Both the position numbers and the translations under genes were made by a program. A stretch of 38,055 nucleotides of DNA from UHGV virus genome UHGV-0022456; one strand, given 5' to 3'. Shown in pieces: positions 3,149 to 38,036 of the stretch. Under the pieces are notes generated by a model, which worked only from the letters and a program-made list of their open reading frames with translations, was not told the DNA's origin and did no database searches. The DNA comes from a virus. Positions within the stretch are counted from its first letter, which is position 1. The number at the start of each line of letters is the position of its first letter.

Positions 3149-4553
3149 ACCAGGCGGAAAGGTTGTAGCCGGTGTTGAGTTGAGGCGAGAATGCACAAAC
3201 AAGGGAGTCGGCAAGGTTGTGTGATGGTATTCCGCGCTTCTTGAGTGATTCCTTGCCCTCAACCTTAATCTTACCGTTGGAGTATTCCCGGTTTGGTGCG
3301 GATAGCTCTCCCTTAAGTTTATTCAGTACCTCAGGCGCAATACAGGATGAGTCAATGCTGATGATATTATCCATGTCCACCTCTTTTCCTTCCACGACCG
3401 CCTTGTAGGTATTATGGAACCGGTCGCGCAGATACCACCAGCCCATTGCCTTCATGTTAAGGAAGTGCTGCCCATTGGTGCGCCCTGGCATGTATTCGGA
3501 GTCTGGATTGCATGGTGATTCACTGGCGGTGAATTCAGAGAACGGTACAATTTGACCATGCTGCCCTTTGGACCTCATATCGGTTTCAATCTCGCGGAAT
3601 TTACCCTTAACACCAGCGCCGACGCCGATGTTGTCGTAAATAACGTGCGATATTCCATCCTGAATGGCCTCAGCATAAACACGCTCACCAACAGCAACCG
3701 GGTCGCGGTCCTTCCATTCATCAAGCTGATAGACAATCTGCCCGTCACGGTAGCACCTGGCGTTAAAGTCTTCGCCCTCATCCATCGGGTCAAGGCCGCA
3801 GAACCTGTTTCCGGTGCGTGTTATGCCCAGCTTAAGGTGTGCGTCGATTGCTGCCTCTATCCATGAAGGTTTGATGATTGAAAGCGCGGAGTTAGCGACC
3901 GGCATCCCCAGATAGACGTGCTGGTAAAGCTCGGGGTCGTCATTCTTCATTAGCTCCATATCGATACGCAACTCCTCCGGGAATCGCGGGTTAGCGTCGT
4001 AGTTTATGCAGCGCACGATGCAGTATGGCTTGCCCTTGATGGTATCAGGGTACTTCCGGTTAGTCACGAATCGCTGATAGGTGTCATCCAGTGGCGACTC
4101 TGGGTTAAAGCTAACCCATATCTCTGAGCCTTTTTTACGCAGCGTAGGGATGAGCAGCTTCCAGGAATCTTTTGTTACCTTCGCGGCCTCCTCCACCCAT
4201 GCAGCGTCGAACCCGGCGTACCCCTTCACCTTCTGCTGGTTGCGATGCAGGCCGTCAAATTTAATGATGCCCGTTCCGCGTTTTGCCCTTATTTCAGTTT
4301 TCAGGACGTCAACCATGTCATGCAGGTTTCGGCGCTCAATCTCTTCGATAAACTCCTGGTATACGGAGTCCTCGATAGATTTCATGATTTCACGGAAGCA
4401 GACAAGGCGCCACCCGTGCCAGATGACGTTATTGAGCAGGATGGTTATGAATGTGCGGGTCTTTGCAGAGCCACGCCCACCGTATGCAACCTTGAACCTG
4501 GCTGGCTGCAAAAAGTCACGGTAGGCGCGGAAGATTTCACAGGTTTCACTCAT
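3147..4553 (-). CDS. terL: Terminase large subunit (PBSX/Terminase_3-like)
   Basis: 468 aa; N-terminal P-loop KVAYGGRGSAKT; directly downstream of and overlapping the small-subunit gene. Confidence 0.85.
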   Translation of the reverse strand: MSETCEIFRAYRDFLQPARFKVAYGGRGSAKTRTFITILLNNVIWHGWRLVCFREIMKSIEDSVYQEFIEEIERRNLHDMVDVLKTEIRAKRGTGIIKFDGLHRNQQKVKGYAGFDAAWVEEAAKVTKDSWKLLIPTLRKKGSEIWVSFNPESPLDDTYQRFVTNRKYPDTIKGKPYCIVRCINYDANPRFPEELRIDMELMKNDDPELYQHVYLGMPVANSALSIIKPSWIEAAIDAHLKLGITRTGNRFCGLDPMDEGEDFNARCYRDGQIVYQLDEWKDRDPVAVGERVYAEAIQDGISHVIYDNIGVGAGVKGKFREIETDMRSKGQHGQIVPFSEFTASESPCNPDSEYMPGRTNGQHFLNMKAMGWWYLRDRFHNTYKAVVEGKEVDMDNIISIDSSCIAPEVLNKLKGELSAPNREYSNGKIKVEGKESLKKRGIPSHNLADSLVCAFSPQLNTGYNLSAW

Positions 4554-5151
4554 CAGCGATTTTATATACTGGCGCCTGAGGAGTCATTGAGCCATCCTCA
4601 GACACATGGTTAACGGTTTCCTTGTACCCACCCAGCATCTTGATGAGCATGTCCTGCGCCTTCTGCTGGTCGGCCATTTCAAACTTCGGCCCCATCTTCG
4701 TGAAGGTGATACCTTTGATGAGTCCGCGAATTTCTTCGGGAACCTCGTCAGAGCTCATCTTCACGACCGGAACAGTCATTTCGCCAATCACCTCACCGTC
4801 ATCGTTCACCATCGGGCGCGGCTCCCAACCGATGAACTGAGTCACGTCAGCGAATGCCTGCGCCTGAATCCTGGATGCAATTTCGTCCAGGCTCATGAGT
4901 TTTGACTTGGCAATGAGTCGGCGAGCCTCACGGACGTAGGGTCCGACTTTAGGGTGGGTTAACAATTTGCATCCGGCAACTACGGCAGACTTATATGCCA
5001 CTTCTTCGCCATAGGCATGGAGATATGCTCTAGTTGCGTTACCATTAGCAATATAATGATTAGCAAATGTTAAATGGTCTTTACTCAGTTGAGCCGCCAT
5101 TTCCTCAAGCTCAGGCGTGAAGAAAGGCAGGTTGTCGTCTGCCTCTGCCAT
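4546..5151 (-). CDS. terS: Terminase small subunit
   Basis: 201 aa; N-terminal FANHYIANGNATRAYLHAYG resembles Terminase_2-type small subunits; 8-nt overlap with terL. Confidence 0.75.
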   Translation of the reverse strand: MAEADDNLPFFTPELEEMAAQLSKDHLTFANHYIANGNATRAYLHAYGEEVAYKSAVVAGCKLLTHPKVGPYVREARRLIAKSKLMSLDEIASRIQAQAFADVTQFIGWEPRPMVNDDGEVIGEMTVPVVKMSSDEVPEEIRGLIKGITFTKMGPKFEMADQQKAQDMLIKMLGGYKETVNHVSEDGSMTPQAPVYKIADE

Positions 5152-9472: not shown

Positions 9473-9502
9473 TTGAACGGATTTTTAGCGGGAGCAAAAG
9501 AA

Positions 9503-11251
9503 ATGAAACAGCCACGCCCATATCAACAGGAAGCCATTAACTCCACTATCGAGGAGATTAAAAAATATGCCAAGCAGGGGAAATCAGCCCACCTGATTAT
9601 TGATGCAGGGCCTGGAGCGGGGAAGACATTGCTTATGGCTTTTTTGGCTAAGCATGTATTTGAGAGAGGTGGCCGTGTTGTGCAACTGGCTCGCCAGCCG
9701 ATACTGGCAAAGCAGAACTATGACGAGATGTACGAGTGCGGCATACCAGCCGCGCTTTACGCAGCAAAGTTCAACCGCCGTCAGGTTGCGCAGGTTACTG
9801 TTGCAACGGAGGGCACAATAGCCAATTCTCTGCATGACATGAATAAGCCGGTGGATCTTCTACTTTTGGATGAGTGTCACACTCTTAGTCCGGATGATGA
9901 AGATACGCAGATGAACACTATCATTCGACACCTGGATGATGTGACTACAAAAGCCGGCAGAAAGATGCACGTTGTCGGCCTCACGGGAAGCCCGTTCCGT
10001 GGGGTTACTCCATTAACCAGTTTCGATTTCTGGCACGATACGGTATTCAATATTGGCACTGATAAGCTGACGGAACTGGGTTACTTGTCAGTTCCTGTTT
10101 TCGGGTTCGCCGATGCCGATGATGATGCCCTGGACTTCTCCGGCGTAAACACTCGCAGCGGCTCATGGGAGTTCAGCGAGAAGGAACTCGACGAAATCGC
10201 CATGTCCGACGCAGGCAAGAAAAAACTTGTCCGCATTCTGATGCAGGTCATTGAAAAGACCAAAGACCGAAATCAGCGGATAGTCTTTGCATCTACCAAG
10301 CGACACGCCAGGGAGATTCGCCGCATCCTGATTGCCCTGGGCATCGACAAAAGCAAGATTGGCCTTGTCACTGACGATTCCAGCGAGGCAGAGAAAGACC
10401 GCGTTATCAAGCTGTCGAAGGAAGGCAAATTAGACTGGCTGATTAACGTGTCGGTGCTGACCACTGGCTTTAACTCGCCCCTGATTGACGTGGTGGTGTA
10501 CCTGCGCCCGATTGGTTCACTGGTGTTGCTGATTCAGTCAATGGGGCGAGGTGCTCGCCTGCTGGAAGACTGGATGAAAGAGGCTGGATTCCACAAAGAG
10601 AACTATCTGGTGCTGGACTATGCCGGGGTATTCGACCGGCTGGGGCATTTGCTGGATGACCCGACTACCGGCGAGGCGCTTGCTCAGCGTGATAAGTCTC
10701 GCGGAGAAGATAAACCATGCCCGCGCTGCCATGAGATGAACAGCAAGGCGGCTCGTCGCTGCCGGGCAAGGGATGAGTCTGAGCCTGATAAACGCTGTTC
10801 ATTTTTTTGGACGTCACAGATTTGCCCCGACTGCCAGACTGAAAATGACATTGCAGCTACTGAATGCCGTAATCCGTCATGCAGGCGAGAACTAAGGGAC
10901 TCAAATAAGGCTCTGCTGCATCATCCGTATTCAGATGAGGAAATGGTTGGCGTTAAGAAGATGGACGTGCTGAATACGAAAGGAGGTGCGCTAATGGTGC
11001 GCTTCACCCTGGAAGGCGACGAGCGACAACCGTACCTGATATTCCCGATGGGTGGCGATTTATCGAGGCGCATTCTGAAAAAGGAATTTGTCGATGTGTA
11101 CGTACAACCTGGCTGGCGCGGAAGGGTGGCGTCCATGAAAACAGCCGAGCAGATTGTGAAGATGGCGGGCGCATTCATGACGCCGAAGGCTATCGCATAC
11201 CGCATCAACGGCAATAACAAATATGTAGTTGGTCGCAGGAAATTCTCATGA
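9503..11251 (+). CDS. SF2 DEAH-box DNA helicase with C-terminal zinc-ribbon region
   Basis: Track ORF 9473-11251 trimmed to ATG 9503; Walker A GPGAGKT; box II LLLLDECH; C-terminal CPRCH...CRARD and CPDCQ...CRNPSC. Confidence 0.75.
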   Translation: MKQPRPYQQEAINSTIEEIKKYAKQGKSAHLIIDAGPGAGKTLLMAFLAKHVFERGGRVVQLARQPILAKQNYDEMYECGIPAALYAAKFNRRQVAQVTVATEGTIANSLHDMNKPVDLLLLDECHTLSPDDEDTQMNTIIRHLDDVTTKAGRKMHVVGLTGSPFRGVTPLTSFDFWHDTVFNIGTDKLTELGYLSVPVFGFADADDDALDFSGVNTRSGSWEFSEKELDEIAMSDAGKKKLVRILMQVIEKTKDRNQRIVFASTKRHAREIRRILIALGIDKSKIGLVTDDSSEAEKDRVIKLSKEGKLDWLINVSVLTTGFNSPLIDVVVYLRPIGSLVLLIQSMGRGARLLEDWMKEAGFHKENYLVLDYAGVFDRLGHLLDDPTTGEALAQRDKSRGEDKPCPRCHEMNSKAARRCRARDESEPDKRCSFFWTSQICPDCQTENDIAATECRNPSCRRELRDSNKALLHHPYSDEEMVGVKKMDVLNTKGGALMVRFTLEGDERQPYLIFPMGGDLSRRILKKEFVDVYVQPGWRGRVASMKTAEQIVKMAGAFMTPKAIAYRINGNNKYVVGRRKFS

Positions 11252-11736
11252 TTACTCAAGAAGAGCTAAAGAAGGCATTGAATTACGATCCATTAACTGG
11301 AATTTTCACCAGGAATATGAGGGCATCAAATCAAGTTCCTGGACAAGTTGTTGGCTCTAAAGATAGCGGTGGTTACTTGGTTGCAATGATTAACGGGAAA
11401 AGGTACTCACTACACAGGATGGCCTGGCTTTATTTTTATGGAAGGATACCAGTTGGAGATATAGACCACATAAACGGCGTTAGGGACGATAACCGAATTG
11501 TAAACCTCAGGGAATGCAGCCGTAGCAAGAATTGCATGAACAAAAAGATAAATAAAAACAACATGTCAGGAGTTAAAGGGGTTGGCTGGCATAAGCAAAG
11601 CGGCAAGTGGAGAGCAAGGATAATGATAGACGGAGAGTCTATTCATATCGGTGAATTTAAATCAATAGGTGATGCCGAGTCAGCAATATCAGAAGCAAGA
11701 GATAAAATACATAAGCAATTCGCGAGGCATTCATGA
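11248..11736 (+). CDS. HNH endonuclease with AP2-like DNA-binding domain (paralog 1)
   Basis: HRMAWLYFYG...DHINGVRDDNRIVNLR HNH core followed by SGVKGVGWHKQSGKWRARI AP2-like segment; AT-rich; ATGA overlap with helicase stop. Confidence 0.7.
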   Translation: MITQEELKKALNYDPLTGIFTRNMRASNQVPGQVVGSKDSGGYLVAMINGKRYSLHRMAWLYFYGRIPVGDIDHINGVRDDNRIVNLRECSRSKNCMNKKINKNNMSGVKGVGWHKQSGKWRARIMIDGESIHIGEFKSIGDAESAISEARDKIHKQFARHS

Positions 11737-12149
11737 TAAGGAAAAATCAAAGCCATGACGGTTATTTTATTTACTGGGATGATGAGGCAAAGGGAGATTG
11801 CCGACTTGAGGTATCAGAGCAGATTGACGCTATGGCATGGCTGAAGGAGTTTTACCCGGATGCCAGGAAGGTGACTTTTCATGTACCGAACGAGAGCGAT
11901 TCTAAGCCTCAGTACAGGGCATCTCTTCAGCAGCAAGGGGTAACGTCAGGCGTTAGCGATATCGTTACGCTGTGGGGAACTGGTGCGGTTTTTGAGATGA
12001 AGCGGGCCATCAAGTCGAAGTCATCCGTTAGCAAAGAGCAGCGGGAGTTTCTGAGGCTGTCCCATCAGCAAGGGAAGTTTGCCGCATTGTGCTACGGAGC
12101 TTCAGCTTTTAAGCAGGCATGGGTTGACTATCTCGCCACTTTTAATTAA
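11733..12149 (+). CDS. VRR-NUC domain nuclease
   Basis: 138 aa; PD-(D/E)xK-like GVSDIVTLWGTGAVFEMKRAIK; ATGA overlap with upstream HNH gene. Confidence 0.6.
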   Translation: MIRKNQSHDGYFIYWDDEAKGDCRLEVSEQIDAMAWLKEFYPDARKVTFHVPNESDSKPQYRASLQQQGVTSGVSDIVTLWGTGAVFEMKRAIKSKSSVSKEQREFLRLSHQQGKFAALCYGASAFKQAWVDYLATFN

Positions 12150-12177: not shown

Positions 12178-12387
12178 ATGAACCGCGAAGAATTTATTCA
12201 GAAAAATATCAAGAAGATTTTAATCAGCGAAGGCTTCAGCCATGAGGCGGCTGAGGTTGGCGCAGATGCTGCGCTGGATTTGTACCTGAGAAAGTCAGAC
12301 TTTCCGAACGGAAAGGCTTTCGACTTCTGCCTGATGAATGCACGCCGTGAAGCCAAGATGAAGCAGTCAGCAATGAGGATTAAGTAA
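12178..12387 (+). CDS. Hypothetical protein (69 aa)
   Basis: Track ORF 12079-12387 trimmed to ATG 12178 with AGGAGG SD at 12165-12170. Confidence 0.45.
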   Translation: MNREEFIQKNIKKILISEGFSHEAAEVGADAALDLYLRKSDFPNGKAFDFCLMNARREAKMKQSAMRIK

Positions 12388-12451
12388 TGACTTTACCTTG
12401 CTCAACTTGTGGCCTAAGATTAATTTTTAAAAAGCAGATTGAGGATAATTT

Positions 12452-12958
12452 ATGTTTCACCCAACAGGTCTAAGTCACGATGAAATATGTAGTCTTTTTG
12501 ACTACGACCCAGAGACAGGAGAAATAAAGAGAAAGTTCAAGGTTAGAGGCTCAAGATCTGATGGTAAAACAGGGGGAATGGGCGGACACAAGTACATAAG
12601 GATAGGATTCAGAGGTTTTAGGATTTACGCGCACAGGCTTGCATGGTTCATCTATCACGGTCATCTGGACCGGGACATTGAAATAGACCACCTGAATGGA
12701 AATGGATATGACAACAGAATTTGCAACTTAAGGCTTGCCACTAGCCAGCAAAATTCATTCAACATAAAAAAACATGCAGATAATCAATCTGGTTATAAGT
12801 GGGTTTACTTTGACAAAAGAAGGCAGAAGTTTTCTTCAAGGGTTTCAGTTAACGGAAGGTCAATGTTTCTTGGTTACTACATAAACCCAGAGGATGCACA
12901 TATGGCGGCGCTAAAGGTAGCCATGGCAGTGCACAAAGAATTTTTCAGGAGCAAATAG
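12452..12958 (+). CDS. HNH endonuclease with AP2-like domain (paralog 2)
   Basis: HRLAWFIYHG...DHLNGNGYDNRICNLR then SGYKWVYFDKRRQKFSSRV; AT-rich; GAGG SD. Confidence 0.7.
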   Translation: MFHPTGLSHDEICSLFDYDPETGEIKRKFKVRGSRSDGKTGGMGGHKYIRIGFRGFRIYAHRLAWFIYHGHLDRDIEIDHLNGNGYDNRICNLRLATSQQNSFNIKKHADNQSGYKWVYFDKRRQKFSSRVSVNGRSMFLGYYINPEDAHMAALKVAMAVHKEFFRSK

Positions 12959-12959
12959 C

Positions 12960-13901
12960 ATGAACTACTTACCAGCACTAAAACCAGCACATGATTTGAT
13001 TCTTTCACAAGAAAGTTCATTCATGTCGATACTTTCTGATGAAAAAATTAATTTTCATAAGGAAATGAATTTTGCAATGCAGCAGCTTTCAGGAAATGAC
13101 TTCTTGCTTAAAGTGGCAATGCAAAACCCACAATCACTAAAGGATGCAATATTAAACCTTGCAGCATTCGGTCTAAGTCTTAATCCTGCACTTAAGCATG
13201 CTTATCTGGTTCCAAGAAAAGGTAAGATATGCCTTGATGTTGGTTATCTTGGCATGGAATACATAGCCATAGACTCAGGAAGCGTGCTATGGGTTCAAAG
13301 CAAGATTGTTTATTCAAATGATACATATGAGTCAATGGGGATAGACAAGGCTCCAGAGCACAGATATAGCGCGTTCGGAAGTAGAGGCTCAATTGTAGGG
13401 GCTTATTGCGTTGCAAAGGTTCACGATGGCTCATTCCTTACCGAAGAGATGAATATAGAGGAAATATATAAAATAAGGTCTCGTTCTGAATCGTTCTCAA
13501 AGGGAAGCATGTCTCCTTGGAAAACTGACGAAGGCGAGATGATAAAGAAGACAGTTATAAAGAGAGCAAGCAAAGGGTGGCCGAAGTGCGACCGACTGCA
13601 AAGTGTTATTAGTTTCGCCAATGAGAATGAGGGCATTGACTTCCAGCGTGAGCGAGCACCAGTGCGCGAGAAGGCTATCAGCCCGGCAACGGAAGAGCAG
13701 GTTAAGACAATCCGTGAAGGCCTGGAGTTTATCAGCCGACCGGAAGAGGCCTTCCTGAAATACTTCTCTGGCAGCATAGCCAAGCGCGTTATTGAGTCCA
13801 TTGAGGAGCTGACCGAGGAGGAGGCAATCAAGGCTATCAGCACCATCCAGAGCATCATGGATAAGCAGGCAGAGAAGCAATCAAATAGAGAGGTATTCTG
13901 A
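12960..13901 (+). CDS. recT: RecT-family single-strand annealing protein
   Basis: 313 aa; pairs with downstream YqaJ-type exonuclease; 5' two-thirds AT-rich, 3' third GC-normal. Confidence 0.65.
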   Translation: MNYLPALKPAHDLILSQESSFMSILSDEKINFHKEMNFAMQQLSGNDFLLKVAMQNPQSLKDAILNLAAFGLSLNPALKHAYLVPRKGKICLDVGYLGMEYIAIDSGSVLWVQSKIVYSNDTYESMGIDKAPEHRYSAFGSRGSIVGAYCVAKVHDGSFLTEEMNIEEIYKIRSRSESFSKGSMSPWKTDEGEMIKKTVIKRASKGWPKCDRLQSVISFANENEGIDFQRERAPVREKAISPATEEQVKTIREGLEFISRPEEAFLKYFSGSIAKRVIESIEELTEEEAIKAISTIQSIMDKQAEKQSNREVF

Positions 13902-14434
13902 TGGGAAGGAGACCTTCTGACATAGATGATGACATGGTTTCTGAGCTTAGAGACAGATTAAATTATGACCCTAATACAGGAATTCTTACATGGAAGAAAG
14001 TCAGAAAAAGAAAACTGATAGGTTCCGAGGCTGGGTTCATGATGAATTCTGGATACATGGCCCTCAAGATTGGGACAAGAAGGATTCAATGCCATAGGGT
14101 TGCCTATGCAATAGTTAACGGAGCAATAGGTGATGGGGTAGAAATCGACCACATTAATGGTGTTAAGCATGATAATAGGATTTTAAATCTTCGTGCATGC
14201 TCTGCATCTCAAAACAGAATGAACGTAGCACTGATGAAAAATAACACATCAGGTGTTAAAGGCGTAAGTTTTTGCAGATCGAGCGGTAAATACAGGGCAG
14301 AAATAATGGTTAATTATAAATCTTACTATCTAGGAGAGTTTTCTAGCATAGATGAGGCATCAAAAGCTGTCTCATCAGTTAGAGCCAATATTCATAAAGA
14401 ATACTCTAATCATGGGGAATTCAAAAAATGCTGA
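13901..14434 (+). CDS. HNH endonuclease with AP2-like domain (paralog 3)
   Basis: HRVAYAIVNG...DHINGVKHDNRILNLR then SGVKGVSFCRSSGKYRAEI; AT-rich; overlaps recT stop by 1 nt and exonuclease start by 7 nt. Confidence 0.7.
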   Translation: MGRRPSDIDDDMVSELRDRLNYDPNTGILTWKKVRKRKLIGSEAGFMMNSGYMALKIGTRRIQCHRVAYAIVNGAIGDGVEIDHINGVKHDNRILNLRACSASQNRMNVALMKNNTSGVKGVSFCRSSGKYRAEIMVNYKSYYLGEFSSIDEASKAVSSVRANIHKEYSNHGEFKKC

Positions 14435-15111
14435 TTGATGACTTGAGGGCTAGGCTTTCTGCATTCAATGATGTTTTCAACCATGACATGCTAACAGTTC
14501 AGCAGCGTGATTATATGTGGTTTAAGTGTCGTCTTGGTGTGATCACCGCATCAAGCATATCAGGCGTACTGGCAAAGACAGGAAGCGCTGCCCGTGATGG
14601 AATAATGGCTGAGTTAATCGCAGAGATTGCCACAGGATCTCCTGGTGAGCCGGTAAGCGCTAAGGCATTGCAGCATGGTATCGACAACGAACCATTCGCC
14701 ATAGAATCATACTCCTTTGCGACCGGTGAAATCGTCAACCAGATACCTTTCGTTTACCGTGATGAAACGATGCGATGCGGATGCTCCCCGGACGGCGTAA
14801 CAGAAAAGAAAACCATTGAGTGCAAAGCTCCGTGGAATACCAGGTATCACATCGAGGCCATTGTTGATGGTAGAATTAAGAAGGAGTACCAGGAACAGGT
14901 TCAGTTCCAGATGTGGGTGTGCGGCACGGAGTCGGTGGACTTCGTTTCATTCGACCCGCGCATGTTGAAGCATAACTTCTTTATGACGACAGTCGAACGC
15001 TCAGACGCGTTCATGAAGAGGTTCGACGACGCCATCCCGCAATTCATCAAGGAAATGGATGCCAAACTGGAACGGCTTGGCTTCAGGTTCGGTGAGCAAT
15101 TCAAAGTATGA
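14428..15111 (+). CDS. YqaJ-like (lambda Exo-type) recombination exonuclease
   Basis: 227 aa; N-terminal WFKCRLGVITASSISGV typical of YqaJ; partner of RecT. Confidence 0.7.
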   Translation: MLIDDLRARLSAFNDVFNHDMLTVQQRDYMWFKCRLGVITASSISGVLAKTGSAARDGIMAELIAEIATGSPGEPVSAKALQHGIDNEPFAIESYSFATGEIVNQIPFVYRDETMRCGCSPDGVTEKKTIECKAPWNTRYHIEAIVDGRIKKEYQEQVQFQMWVCGTESVDFVSFDPRMLKHNFFMTTVERSDAFMKRFDDAIPQFIKEMDAKLERLGFRFGEQFKV

Positions 15112-15136: not shown

Positions 15137-15613
15137 TCATTCTGCTGGAGCGGAAGGCCAACTAACATGCTCAGGGTCGGTTGTTACATCAACAGCTTTA
15201 ACCTCGTTTTTGTAGGCCAGCCACGCAGACAGCTTCGACTTGTTGTCGTCGCTGATTTCACCAAGCATCAGTTCTGTTCGCCAATCCAGCATAACAGAGT
15301 CGGCATTGGACAGTAGTTGCTGACGAACCTGCTCTGCGGCAGAAATCAACTCATCCCGTGTGGGTGGTGGAATATCCACCCACGCTGGCATCCCATCAGA
15401 ACCCACGCCAATAGTTTTTCCTTCCGGTGGCTGCCCGGTAAATTCTGCTGATACCTCATCAGAAACATCGATACCATCTTCCGGCCACATGCCACTTTCC
15501 TGATATTCTGTTTTAAGGGCATAAGACAGCAGGCGCACATTCTTTACATCCCAGATAAAACCATGAATGCGGGGCGGTTCCGGAAGAGTCTTATCTTCAT
15601 TTTTAGTCGTCAT
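15137..15613 (-). CDS. Tail fibre assembly protein (Tfa-like)
   Basis: 158 aa immediately downstream of tail fibre gene; C-terminal LSAWLAYKNEVKAVDVTTDPEHVSWPSAP resembles Tfa chaperones. Confidence 0.65.
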   Translation of the reverse strand: MTTKNEDKTLPEPPRIHGFIWDVKNVRLLSYALKTEYQESGMWPEDGIDVSDEVSAEFTGQPPEGKTIGVGSDGMPAWVDIPPPTRDELISAAEQVRQQLLSNADSVMLDWRTELMLGEISDDNKSKLSAWLAYKNEVKAVDVTTDPEHVSWPSAPAE

Positions 15614-15615
15614 GA

Positions 15616-16266
15616 TTAATATCCAATAGCCAGAAAAAAAACATCAGAAAGATTAGAGTCATGACTTGTGCCGGATGTCAGGCACGTCACAGCGTCAAAC
15701 CCAGTATTTGTTACGCTCTCACAAGACGTAACAATCTGTGCAAATGTCAACTTAGTGGCAAATACTCCCCAAACACCAGTCGGAAATGGTGTCGGATAGG
15801 TGACAGGGATTGTTGTCGGTATGCCAATTAATGTTGAGTTAGATAGCCTACGCCGAAAGACCTGGGTAATTAAACCATTTGGAAGTTTAGCTAACAGATT
15901 GTCAGTGCCTTTCCCTGTAAGCTGGAAATAACTCATATCAGGTATTTCAAGCGATTGAGTATTACCGACATCACGGCCAGATGCTGTCCCGAGATCTCCC
16001 AAACCAAGATTCTCGAGAGCCTTAGCGATTGCTGCCGGACCATCAGCTTTAATGTCTCCGAATGGGTCTGTTCTTTGTAGCTTATTTGAATACAGCCATT
16101 GAGATTTCAGGTCTGATAAATTTTGCAGATAACTGAAGTCATTTTTAGTTGGGGGGGTTGCCCCAACAAATTCCCAACCCTTTGCATAGTTAACATCACC
16201 GATTGGCGTCAATCCACCAGTGGCGGTAGAACCGAAAATCTTGCTGAAATCTGCTGGCAGAGCCAT
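15616..16266 (-). CDS. Tail fibre protein (short)
   Basis: 216 aa; Gly/Thr/Ser-rich; position between baseplate genes and tfa. Confidence 0.5.
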   Translation of the reverse strand: MALPADFSKIFGSTATGGLTPIGDVNYAKGWEFVGATPPTKNDFSYLQNLSDLKSQWLYSNKLQRTDPFGDIKADGPAAIAKALENLGLGDLGTASGRDVGNTQSLEIPDMSYFQLTGKGTDNLLAKLPNGLITQVFRRRLSNSTLIGIPTTIPVTYPTPFPTGVWGVFATKLTFAQIVTSCESVTNTGFDAVTCLTSGTSHDSNLSDVFFLAIGY

Positions 16267-36524: not shown

Positions 36525-37245
36525 AGAATTGCCGAAGCGTGGTGGATGGCCTGATGGTGCGCTAAATGCCACGCAAGATAAAGATGGCCAGGTGTGCTTT
36601 TCTGCCGGTGCAGTCCCTGAATTTGGCTACGTTGCCTGGGAGGGCGGCGACTGGCTCGGGAATGAGTTTTACGCCACTAGGGCAAGCGACTACGCATATG
36701 CCATCATCACCTGCGAACAATACGAATCAGCACTGGCAGCCAGCAAAGCCGTTGTTGGCCATGACGGCTGGATTCAATGGCATGGCGGTGAGTGCCCTGT
36801 TGATAGTGACGCAATTGTTGAGGTCAAATTCCGAAATCAGAACCGGGACAAAATCAATAGTGACAGAGCCGGAGATTTTTACTGGCCGCATGATGGCCTT
36901 GGATATGACATCATCGCCTACCGGCTGCAACAGCAGACGAAATCAGAACAGGCTTGCGATGACGCTGCGGAAGCTGATGACGAAGCCGACCTGAATGAGT
37001 GCATTGGTCATGATTTTGACGTAGTTAACCATCCATCTCACTACACACAAGGCAGTATAGAGTGTATCGACGCTATTAAAGCTGCGCTAGGTGAAGAGCA
37101 ATATGAGGGGTACTTACGCGGCGCTTGCATTAAGTACCTGTGGCGATATAAAATGAAATCTGGAGTTGAGTCATTGAAAAAATCAGAGTGGTATCTGAAA
37201 AGGTTAATCGAACTTAATGAAGAGATTGAATCCAGAAACAAATAG
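36499..37245 (+). CDS. DUF3310-like phage protein
   Basis: 248 aa; C-terminal HYTQGSIECIDAIKAALGEEQYEGYLRGACIKYLWRYKMKSGVESLKKSEWYLKRLIE matches the remembered DUF3310 signature; GAGGAAG SD. Confidence 0.5.
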   Translation: MKLIDLLVKELPKRGGWPDGALNATQDKDGQVCFSAGAVPEFGYVAWEGGDWLGNEFYATRASDYAYAIITCEQYESALAASKAVVGHDGWIQWHGGECPVDSDAIVEVKFRNQNRDKINSDRAGDFYWPHDGLGYDIIAYRLQQQTKSEQACDDAAEADDEADLNECIGHDFDVVNHPSHYTQGSIECIDAIKAALGEEQYEGYLRGACIKYLWRYKMKSGVESLKKSEWYLKRLIELNEEIESRNK

Positions 37246-37930
37246 ACCTTACGTTTTGGGCGAGTACAACCCGGACACGGGGTTGTACTTCAGAGCATAT
37301 GTAAAAACCATCGTCAAATCTGATGGGTACTTTAAAGAAGCGTGGTTATCCCATGATGCTCTCGAAAGATTCATAGCTCGACAAAGGTTATCTGCCAGAA
37401 AATGTCAAATCAGGCGTAATGAGGAGAATCGTAAATGGATTAACGACTATAAAATATCAAAAGGGTGTAGCGTTTGTGGATATAAATCTCACGCTGCTGC
37501 ATTAGATTTTGACCATTTGGAAAGATCAGATAAAAAATTCACGATTGGGAGACGTTTGGGTGGATTGTCGAAAGAGAGGCTGCTTGCTGAAATTGAGAAA
37601 TGCAGAATACTCTGCGCCAATTGTCACAGGGTGAAAACTTTCGAGAATAATGAGCACGGAAGAATAAGAAATGATAATTTACTGGAGAGTGCAATAATCG
37701 AGAGTCGAATAGAAAAATCAAGACAAATAAATAAGTTCAGAAGTAAATTCTACACGACGAAAACGAAAAGTAGACTGAAAAATGTATACCTTTCAAAATC
37801 GGGATTGTACTTCGTGAGAAAACAAATCGGACGGGTAAGAACGTGCGCAGGGTGCTTTGACAACATATTCGATGCGGCATGCTGTCTGATTGGGGAGCAT
37901 CAACTGAAACCGTTATGCGATGGTGAGTGA
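37217..37930 (+). CDS. HNH endonuclease (distinct family from the HNH-AP2 paralogs)
   Basis: CSVCGYKSHAAALDFDHLERSD...CRILCANCHRVKTFEN; AT-rich; 5' end overlaps DUF3310-like gene by 29 nt. Confidence 0.65.
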   Translation: MKRLNPETNRPYVLGEYNPDTGLYFRAYVKTIVKSDGYFKEAWLSHDALERFIARQRLSARKCQIRRNEENRKWINDYKISKGCSVCGYKSHAAALDFDHLERSDKKFTIGRRLGGLSKERLLAEIEKCRILCANCHRVKTFENNEHGRIRNDNLLESAIIESRIEKSRQINKFRSKFYTTKTKSRLKNVYLSKSGLYFVRKQIGRVRTCAGCFDNIFDAACCLIGEHQLKPLCDGE

Positions 37931-37957
37931 TGAGCGGCTTAAACAATTCAACACTAC

Positions 37958-38036
37958 TTAATTGCCTACGTGAAAAGGGTGTAGAAAGGCTAAGTGGTAT
38001 CTCAACAAATTAATCTCTGAACTGGAGTCAAAATAA
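37958..38036 (+). pseudogene. Degenerate 3' remnant of a second DUF3310-like gene
   Basis: Frame A ...NCLREKGVERL, then after an apparent 1-nt loss KAKWYLNKLISELESK-stop, paralleling ...KSGVESLKKSEWYLKRLIELNEE of the intact gene; shared GTGGTATCT core. Confidence 0.35.

Follow-up and report, generated by a model that had tools for sequence, protein, structure and literature searches.

The stretch of DNA analysed here, called the window, is the whole 38,055-nucleotide (nt) sequence of UHGV virus genome UHGV-0022456, a 38-kb tailed-phage genome with a GC content of 0.494. It carries a recT gene directly downstream of a predicted HNH endonuclease gene, here named HNH2. Judging from sequence comparison, this recT is composed of two parts with different histories: codons 1-223 lie in a 1.24-kb AT-rich block (12392-13628), while codons 224-313 belong to the phage backbone. 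The features at this locus are listed below; GC3 denotes GC content at third codon positions.

12181 to 12387, plus strand: small conserved gene, 69 amino acids (aa) as called in relatives; phrog_4439, unassigned function.
12388 to 12451, plus strand: AT-rich spacer of 64 nt, GC 0.31, which travels with HNH2.
12452 to 12958, plus strand: HNH2, 168 aa, GC 0.414; predicted free-standing HNH_3-type endonuclease gene.
12960 to 13901: recT, 313 codons, consisting of core allele A and tail allele c1.
12960 to 13628, plus strand: recT core allele A, codons 1-223; single-stranded DNA (ssDNA)-annealing domain, GC 0.398, GC3 0.24-0.50; part of the HNH2 cassette.
13629 to 13901, plus strand: recT tail allele c1, codons 224-313; EGIDFQRE segment, linker and three-helix C-terminal domain, GC 0.531; native backbone.

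The composition of recT changes along its length. Positions 12960-13559 have a GC content of 0.388 and a GC3 of 0.345, against 0.520 and 0.632 at 13560-13901, and GC3 over successive thirds of the gene is 0.27, 0.42 and 0.63. The best GC3 split falls at codon 177 (nt 13491) and separates 0.32 from 0.62 (z=5.21), a value reached by none of 5000 codon shuffles (largest 4.64). Among the 24 open reading frames (ORFs) of at least 200 codons in the window, this step ranks first and that of the exonuclease gene second. Synonymous codon use is HNH-like in the 5' part of recT and backbone-like in the tail: the log-likelihood ratio of HNH-like against backbone usage is +0.20 and +0.13 per codon in the two 5' segments and -0.46 in the tail, where 100-codon stretches of backbone give a mean of -0.31 (standard deviation 0.15, maximum 0.14). 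The compositional mosaic is confirmed as real and lies far beyond chance. The initial annotation had likened the first 600 nt or so of recT to the low-GC HNH gene upstream, and the last 340 nt or so to the rest of the genome. Both comparisons hold, with GC of 0.388 against 0.414 in HNH2 for the former, and GC of 0.520 against 0.494 in the window together with backbone-like codons for the latter. Its step at about 13560 was a fair estimate by eye, but the evolutionary breakpoint lies some 70 nt later, at 13628-13631. GC climbs gradually along the gene, and the break found by comparison is sharper.

An HNH-free comparator is available in Escherichia phage BUCT618 (OM735461), which is 88-91% identical to the window in nucleotide sequence over most of its length. 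Its gene order is helicase, VRR-NUC, small gene, recT and exonuclease, with no HNH gene at all, and its recT, at 9796-10746 of that genome, has a uniform GC content of 0.51 without a step. A literature search found no publication on BUCT618. The small gene of the window is 90.5% identical to that of BUCT618 as far as 12391. In a codon alignment, the recT core (codons 1-223) is at a nucleotide distance of 0.39 from BUCT618 (61% identity), with protein identity of 46-87%; third-position identity is about 0.25, and thus saturated, over roughly the first two-thirds of the core, and 0.3-0.5 from about nt 13374. The tail (codons 224-313), by contrast, is 92% identical in nucleotides and 99-100% in amino acids, which is the genome-wide backbone level. 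Maximum chi-square analysis places the breakpoint at nt 13628 against BUCT618 and the relatives L007 and L011, and at 13631 against L045; none of 500 permutations reached the observed value. All recT alleles converge at GAGGGNATCGACTTCCAGCG, which encodes EGIDFQRE and sits exactly at the junction of core and tail.

The two parts of recT are found in different combinations among relatives. Four core alleles were recovered by protein and contig searches: A (the window type), B (the BUCT618 type), C (L048 and L010) and D (L011), which differ mutually by 33-43% of nucleotides. There are three tail alleles, c1, c2 and c3. The combinations seen are A+c1, A+c2 (L047), B+c1, B+c2 (L049) and D+c1 (L011). 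Neighbour-joining trees built from the two parts disagree: in the core tree the window falls within A, at 0.39 from BUCT618, in the tail tree it is only 0.08 from BUCT618, and the tail of L047 clusters with that of L049. The suggestion that this RecT is a chimera is therefore supported by the chi-square breakpoints, by the disagreement of the two trees and by the five core-tail combinations. Low GC3 is confined to allele A, at 0.24-0.48 in nearly all bins over codons 1-200 (the first 50 codons of L047, at 0.55, are the exception), whereas cores B, C and D have values of 0.46-0.74. This marks the A core as compositionally foreign to the backbone.

HNH2 and the A core are tightly linked. In a set of 21 metagenomic loci with HNH2, drawn from independent samples and including the window, HNH2 directly precedes a 313-aa RecT with the same core in every case. 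Nucleotide diversity (pi) in this set is about 0.01 across 12375-13624, which comprises HNH2 and the recT core, compared with 0.08-0.11 in the VRR-NUC-like gene and the small gene upstream and 0.08-0.12 in the recT tail from 13625. At the left edge, pi drops through 0.09, 0.04, 0.03, 0.017 and 0 over 12250-12450; diversity is already reduced in the last 35-60 nt of the small gene, consistent with the end of a co-conversion tract. At the right edge it climbs through 0.007, 0.054 and 0.099 over 13600-13675. In the 16 carriers covered by the identity table, the core is 97-100% identical to that of the window in nearly all 100-nt bins, with lower bins of 96% in L061 and L063 and 93% in L046. Between the window and L045 there are 7 differences over the 1276 sites of 12355-13630 (0.55%), but 19 over 178 sites in one flank and 20 over 271 in the other (Fisher p = 6e-13 and 1e-10 for block against flank); on the left, the differences cease at 12354.

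Outside the block, the carriers vary in the 5' halves of their helicase genes, in their exonuclease alleles (70-97% protein identity), and in the presence of HNH1, HNH3 (two further HNH genes) and other small ORFs. Given that the block is near-identical and its flanks are diverged, the spacer, HNH2 and the recT core share a far younger ancestor than their surroundings. The trough in diversity is not a property of the recT gene, since carriers of the B core have equal diversity in core and tail (0.127 and 0.120). The AT-rich part of recT had been described as contiguous with the HNH gene; the constant association in all 21 loci and the shared low-diversity block agree with this.

HNH2 has the features expected of a free-standing endonuclease gene. 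Its product matches Pfam HNH_3 (PF13392, E=1.6e-13) and phrog_99 (E=1e-53), and the motif EIDH(80)LNGNGYDNRICNLRLATSQQN is intact, with the form EIDHLNG...N...N, His80 and the conserved His and Asn residues. In the C-terminal part there is weak similarity to AP2, scoring below the Pfam cutoff of 33.3 bits in HNH2 (15.7 bits, E=0.019) as well as in HNH1 (19.7) and HNH3 (23.8). A sequence search of the Protein Data Bank found no homolog of the nuclease. In 5.8 billion proteins HNH2 forms one cluster at 90% identity, and its next relative is 44% identical. It is present on dozens of contigs, numbering more than 40, and the ORF and motif are intact in every carrier. Endonuclease activity is accordingly a prediction from these sequence features.

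The gene lies between conserved genes and is polymorphic in its presence. It occurs at more than 20 loci and is absent from BUCT618, L049, L007-9, L070-75 and L081, where recT begins at the stop of the upstream gene or another small ORF intervenes. A junction alignment shows that the spacer is missing from BUCT618 and L049, in which recT starts at the ATG found at the beginning of the spacer. The first letters of the spacer, ATGAC, are what remains of the recT start, which overlaps the stop codon of the preceding gene where the site is empty, and its last letters, GAGGA, are the ribosome-binding site of HNH2. No promoter carried by the cassette was found; promoter-like and terminator-like sites in the region are no commoner than in shuffled sequences.

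The product of recT is predicted to be a RecT-family ssDNA-annealing protein, on the strength of its profile matches, its modelled fold and the adjacent exonuclease gene. Pfam PF03837 matches aa 36-211 (E=2.2e-30, 106 bits against a cutoff of 24), and phrog_148 matches with E=3.3e-65. An AlphaFold (AF2) model has a mean confidence score (pLDDT) of 86; its core is confident, with the last core helix extending to residue 223, residues 231-240 are disordered (pLDDT <50), and residues 245-311 form a C-terminal helical domain. The best Foldseek match of the model is LiRecT (7ub2, E=1.4e-7), to which phmmer also finds similarity (E=8.6e-5). A segment of 60-64 residues superposes in Foldseek on the C-terminal domain (CTD) of Red-beta (6m9k, 8tg7), with a target-normalised TM score of 0.82-0.87 and a root-mean-square deviation of 1.1-1.3 A; this segment probably corresponds to the C-terminal helices of RecT. 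In the predicted model, the DNA breakpoint thus falls on a domain boundary, after the core and ahead of the linker and the Red-beta-CTD-like domain. This position would explain why recT chimeras are viable. Co-variation of the C-terminal domain with the exonuclease allele was not seen, as tail c1 is paired with exonuclease alleles that are 70-98% identical.

HNH2 is one of three HNH genes in the replication and recombination region of the window. The neighbouring features are as follows.

9473 to 11251: helicase, intact in the window.
11248 to 11736, plus strand: HNH1, 162 aa, HNH_3/AP2-like, between the helicase and VRR-NUC-like genes; Pfam HNH_3 E=6.2e-17.
11733 to 12149: VRR-NUC-like gene, between HNH1 and the small conserved gene.
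13901 to 14434, plus strand: HNH3, 177 aa, HNH_3/AP2-like; Pfam HNH_3 E=1.9e-13, AP2 E=5.8e-5.
14428 to 15111, plus strand: YqaJ-type exonuclease gene, the RecT partner; Pfam YqaJ E=7.6e-20.

The proteins encoded by HNH1, HNH2 and HNH3 are only 31-46% identical to each other. They are therefore three different invaders and not recent paralogs, and the name "HNH paralog 2" that HNH2 had first been given is not appropriate. The three genes also assort independently.

A pattern similar to that around HNH2 is seen around HNH3. Only HNH3 separates the exonuclease gene from recT, which it abuts directly in BUCT618, and the GC3 step of the exonuclease gene, second-largest in the window, is from 0.47 to 0.75 (z=4.03). 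An identical HNH3 protein is encoded on nine other contigs. Five of these (L070-72, L074 and L075) have no HNH2 and a B-type RecT of 316 or 317 aa, three are too short upstream to tell, and L076 has an A core. Across the nine carriers, the block 13850-14749, which contains HNH3 and about 107 exonuclease codons, is 96-100% identical per 50-nt bin (mostly 98-100%), against 84-98% in the flanks. The exonuclease gene is thus also a mosaic, with its first 107 or so codons linked to HNH3 and its 3' end belonging to the backbone. With a low-diversity block on either side, the recT tail (13629-13850) is therefore native sequence between separately mobile blocks. The proposal that HNH3 brought the window-type exonuclease allele is supported in part, as similar alleles (84-100% nucleotide identity) occur without HNH3 in L051, L054, L064, L066 and L068. 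Across relatives, the slot between recT and the exonuclease gene holds one of two HNH types, an ORF of 47, 58, 71 or 73 aa, or nothing.

L081, a contig without HNH2 and HNH3, has HNH1 in common with the window. Only 2 sites of 11228-11788 differ between the two, against a divergence of 5-10% outside this interval. This block barely exceeds the gene itself, and its edges are poorly defined with two genomes.

The whole neighbourhood of recT is strongly modular. The 5' half of the helicase gene (9473-10100) occurs among HNH2 carriers in two very different allele classes, either 91-99% identical to the window or at most 72% identical or without a match. In several relatives the helicase gene is called as two pieces around an insert (L053 633-1238, L060 716-1309, L061 259-807, L069 109-807). 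The inserts or neighbouring products have faint matches to Intein_splicing or LAGLIDADG_2, and the insert may be a further mobile element of the same module, an intron or intein with an endonuclease. Downstream of the exonuclease gene, the tail-fibre and assembly genes at 15145-15990 are without a match at the DNA level in BUCT618 and most relatives. Two other low-GC stretches of the window are also without a BUCT618 counterpart. An island at 1189-2022 (GC about 0.41; alignment gap at 1192-2023) encodes an N6 DNA methylase-like protein (PF02384, E=1.4e-7). A 237-aa ORF at 37217-37930 (GC about 0.40, no Pfam match) sits within the unmatched stretch 37077-37979.

The slot upstream of recT is a hot spot. 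It is occupied in different genomes by four HNH types (about 40% identical where compared) or by four unrelated small ORFs of 86, 192, 81 and 56 aa, or it is empty, as in most genomes with a B core. Its coordinates are 12388-12959 in the window, 5487-5999 in L003, 607-867 in L004, 3480-3986 in L010, 3738-3983 in L011, 3409-3987 in L048 and 3641-3811 in L081.

The best explanation for these observations, in which we have reasonably good confidence, is intronless homing of a free-standing HNH endonuclease gene that carries with it a divergent and probably cleavage-resistant recT core. During co-infection, HNH2 would nick or cut the recT region of a related genome that lacks HNH2. The broken ends would then be resected to sequence shared with the donor, on the left at about 12330-12391 in the end of the small gene and on the right in the EGIDFQRE-coding stretch from 13628. 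Because donor and recipient are heterologous across the core, the tract can end only at the return of homology, at the 3' end of the small gene and at the EGIDFQRE segment. Repair would copy the whole interval, so that HNH2 and the linked recT core are co-inherited. The core is highly divergent and probably has no HNH2 target, which would make it a resistant allele; the position of the target near recT is likewise presumed. The product would be functional since the junction sits at a domain boundary. A footprint of co-conversion during homing had been proposed in the initial annotation. The low-diversity block and the linkage agree with this proposal, but what was copied is not a few flanking polymorphisms; it is a whole heterologous block the size of a domain.

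Several points weigh against this explanation. The A core is also found without HNH2, beside other genes: a 40%-identical HNH gene in L003, the apparent 3' end of a third HNH type in L047, and an unrelated 86-aa non-HNH ORF in L004-6. These cores are at a p-distance of 0.09-0.14 from the window core (86-91% nucleotide identity). L004-6 has a uniform identity of about 87% to the window across the junction, so that the A+c1 chimera arose before the haplotype linked to HNH2 began its present spread. Judging from these sequences, the A core is older than its present linkage to HNH2, and the AT-rich allele is not intrinsically tied to this gene. The right edge of the block is also very sharp, with polymorphism resuming at 13631 and no long decay into the homologous tail. 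Such an edge is expected only if recipients carried an A-type core beforehand, or if cleavage takes place at the junction itself. Searches of phage records and proteins yielded no donor lineage for either HNH2 or the A core: in tblastn against 50,697 phage records the best match of the core was BUCT618 (68% aa identity) and that of HNH2 was 47% identical, while the search of 5.8 billion proteins returned only the same phage group for both, with next relatives at 74% for the core and 44% for HNH2. HNH_3 proteins can, moreover, be inactive or domesticated, as PMC10448857 also cautions. Finally, a strong selective sweep of the core allele would give the same diversity trough.

Such a sweep, in which a favourable core A spreads by ordinary homologous recombination and HNH2 hitchhikes, is in our view unlikely. 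The advantage could lie, for instance, in evading an abortive-infection system by which the host detects phage single-strand annealing proteins; escape from lactococcal AbiK maps to phage sak genes. A sweep leaves a trough of this kind, selection for function would also favour a junction at a domain boundary, and the A core, which occurs with at least three different upstream HNH genes and a non-HNH ORF, persists whatever is upstream. However, the trough starts exactly at the HNH2 insertion point, and the whole of HNH2 and the spacer are as near-identical as the core. The older A haplotypes without HNH2 are diverse, at the p-distances given above, and only the HNH2-linked haplotype is homogeneous. 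HNH3 shows the same pattern together with another gene, and so does HNH1, there with hardly any sequence of the flanking genes; the repetition of the pattern at all three loci points to the endonuclease genes as the common factor.

Passive modular mosaicism is less probable again and can be regarded as improbable. A single old illegitimate or microhomology event would have linked the native tail to a foreign core and to an HNH gene that is inert today, and all carriers would be descendants of this ancestor. The core, having no homologous partner in B-type genomes, would stay clonal while its flanks reshuffle by recombination with the wider population. The junction shared with the HNH-free L004-6 at uniform identity indeed shows that the chimera is old, and homologous exchange within the core would be blocked by the divergence among cores A-D. 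Recombinational isolation of the core does not hold, however, as A-type partners exist and exchange with them is visible. L046 has a patch of the older A type at 4549-4576 (window 13508-13535), with seven substitutions in 28 nt inside a window-type core, and L003, with its different HNH gene upstream, follows the window haplotype to about 13225-13230 (L003 about 6270) and the older A haplotype thereafter. Over 21 loci from unrelated samples, diversity is about 1% in the block and 8-11% in the 100 nt next to it on either side, so the ancestor of the block must be far younger than that of every flank. The HNH2 ORF and motif being intact in all carriers also argues against an inert gene. A sweep and a passive block are possible accounts, and neither explains the same pattern around three different endonuclease genes. 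An assembly artefact, in which a chimeric contig was joined inside recT, has a negligible probability and was rejected: the window is a metagenome-assembled contig (ena:ERZ27287279:k141_237837, 38,055 bp), but more than 20 independent assemblies, made with different assemblers in different studies, have the same junction, and the contig itself was found in 4 samples.

It is tempting to go beyond homing as such and to speculate that HNH2 and the recT core form a natural "cleave-and-rescue" unit, a proposal that we make tentatively and consider rather more apt to fail than to hold. HNH2 would target B-type recT at or near the junction (about 13600-13640), and the recoded AT-rich core would be the uncleavable replacement. 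The unit would parasitise the RecT/Exo repair module, and its end would have to fall at the domain linker for every transfer to yield a working, domain-swapped RecT. If this is true, the recombination module would consist, with HNH3 and the exonuclease 5' part included, of half-gene cassettes that drive independently of one another.

If intronless homing is correct, the locus shows, in a natural case and at nucleotide resolution, how mosaic phage genes arise through free-standing homing endonucleases. The moving unit would be the endonuclease gene plus a domain-sized piece of its neighbour, with the junction placed where homology resumes and a swap is tolerated. In this phage group, natural chimeras of RecT core and CTD, paired with various exonucleases, are also already at hand and could inform the design of recombineering proteins and studies of the specificity between single-strand annealing proteins and exonucleases. 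Caution is needed with recT and exonuclease trees in this group, which track the traffic of endonuclease-linked cassettes and not phage phylogeny.

Similar cases are known from phage T4. For the Seg and Mob endonucleases, the endonuclease gene and its cleavage site are hundreds of bp apart; resection has to extend into homologous sequence that flanks this gene in the donor, and co-conversion of the interval results in localised marker exclusion (PMC2988022, PMC2790892). Similar to HNH2, the T4 endonuclease genes in the pairs SegF/gene 56, SegG/gene 32 and MobE/nrdB have no promoter and lie between conserved genes; the endonuclease gene and the interval are co-inherited, and the donor allele replaces that of the recipient (PMC2988022, PMC2790892). 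Different endonuclease genes can also share a slot, as SegH and Hef replace mobC and mobE in relatives (cited in PMC2988022), and four HNH types do so upstream of recT. There are also differences. The T4 cases were shown by cleavage mapping and crosses, while homing of HNH2 is proposed from population genomics. Between T4 and T2 the interval is homologous with scattered polymorphisms, whereas here a 669-nt block, 39% divergent from the allele it replaces, ends at a domain boundary. Unlike in T4, the target gene here would be the phage's own recombinase.

In the sections considered here, Barth, Dunham and Seed 2023 (PMC10448857) describe nuclease genes at the boundaries of genetic exchange between phages. 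Their homing endonuclease gene (HEG) islands are likewise blocks of high similarity in less similar phages, bounded by or containing HNH/AP2-type or T5orf172 genes, and a single locus can host several unrelated HEGs (about 30% identical). As far as these sections go, the study covers ICP1 and other phage groups, mostly in the neighbourhoods of terminase, polymerase, ribonucleotide reductase, capsid and tape-measure genes. The I-HmuI-like HNH enzymes of Bacillus phages SPO1 and SP82 and of lactococcal Skunavirus combine an HNH_3 domain with a C-terminal DNA-binding region. HNH2 has the former, and its weakly AP2-like C-terminal part may correspond to the latter. The I-HmuI-like enzymes cause marker exclusion of related phages, and their number and location vary among close relatives (PMC12724721; PMC2988022). 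I-HmuI is encoded in an intron, while HNH2 is free-standing and has low sequence similarity to any characterised enzyme.

At the protein level, the modelled window core matches the LiRecT fold, and the three-helix domain resembles the CTD of Red-beta. The Red-beta CTD binds lambda Exo and the tail of SSB. The phage group described here differs in holding the two domains in different natural combinations. The locus is best seen as a clean and well-replicated new instance of a known phenomenon, to which it adds a recombinase as the presumed target and a junction at a domain boundary.

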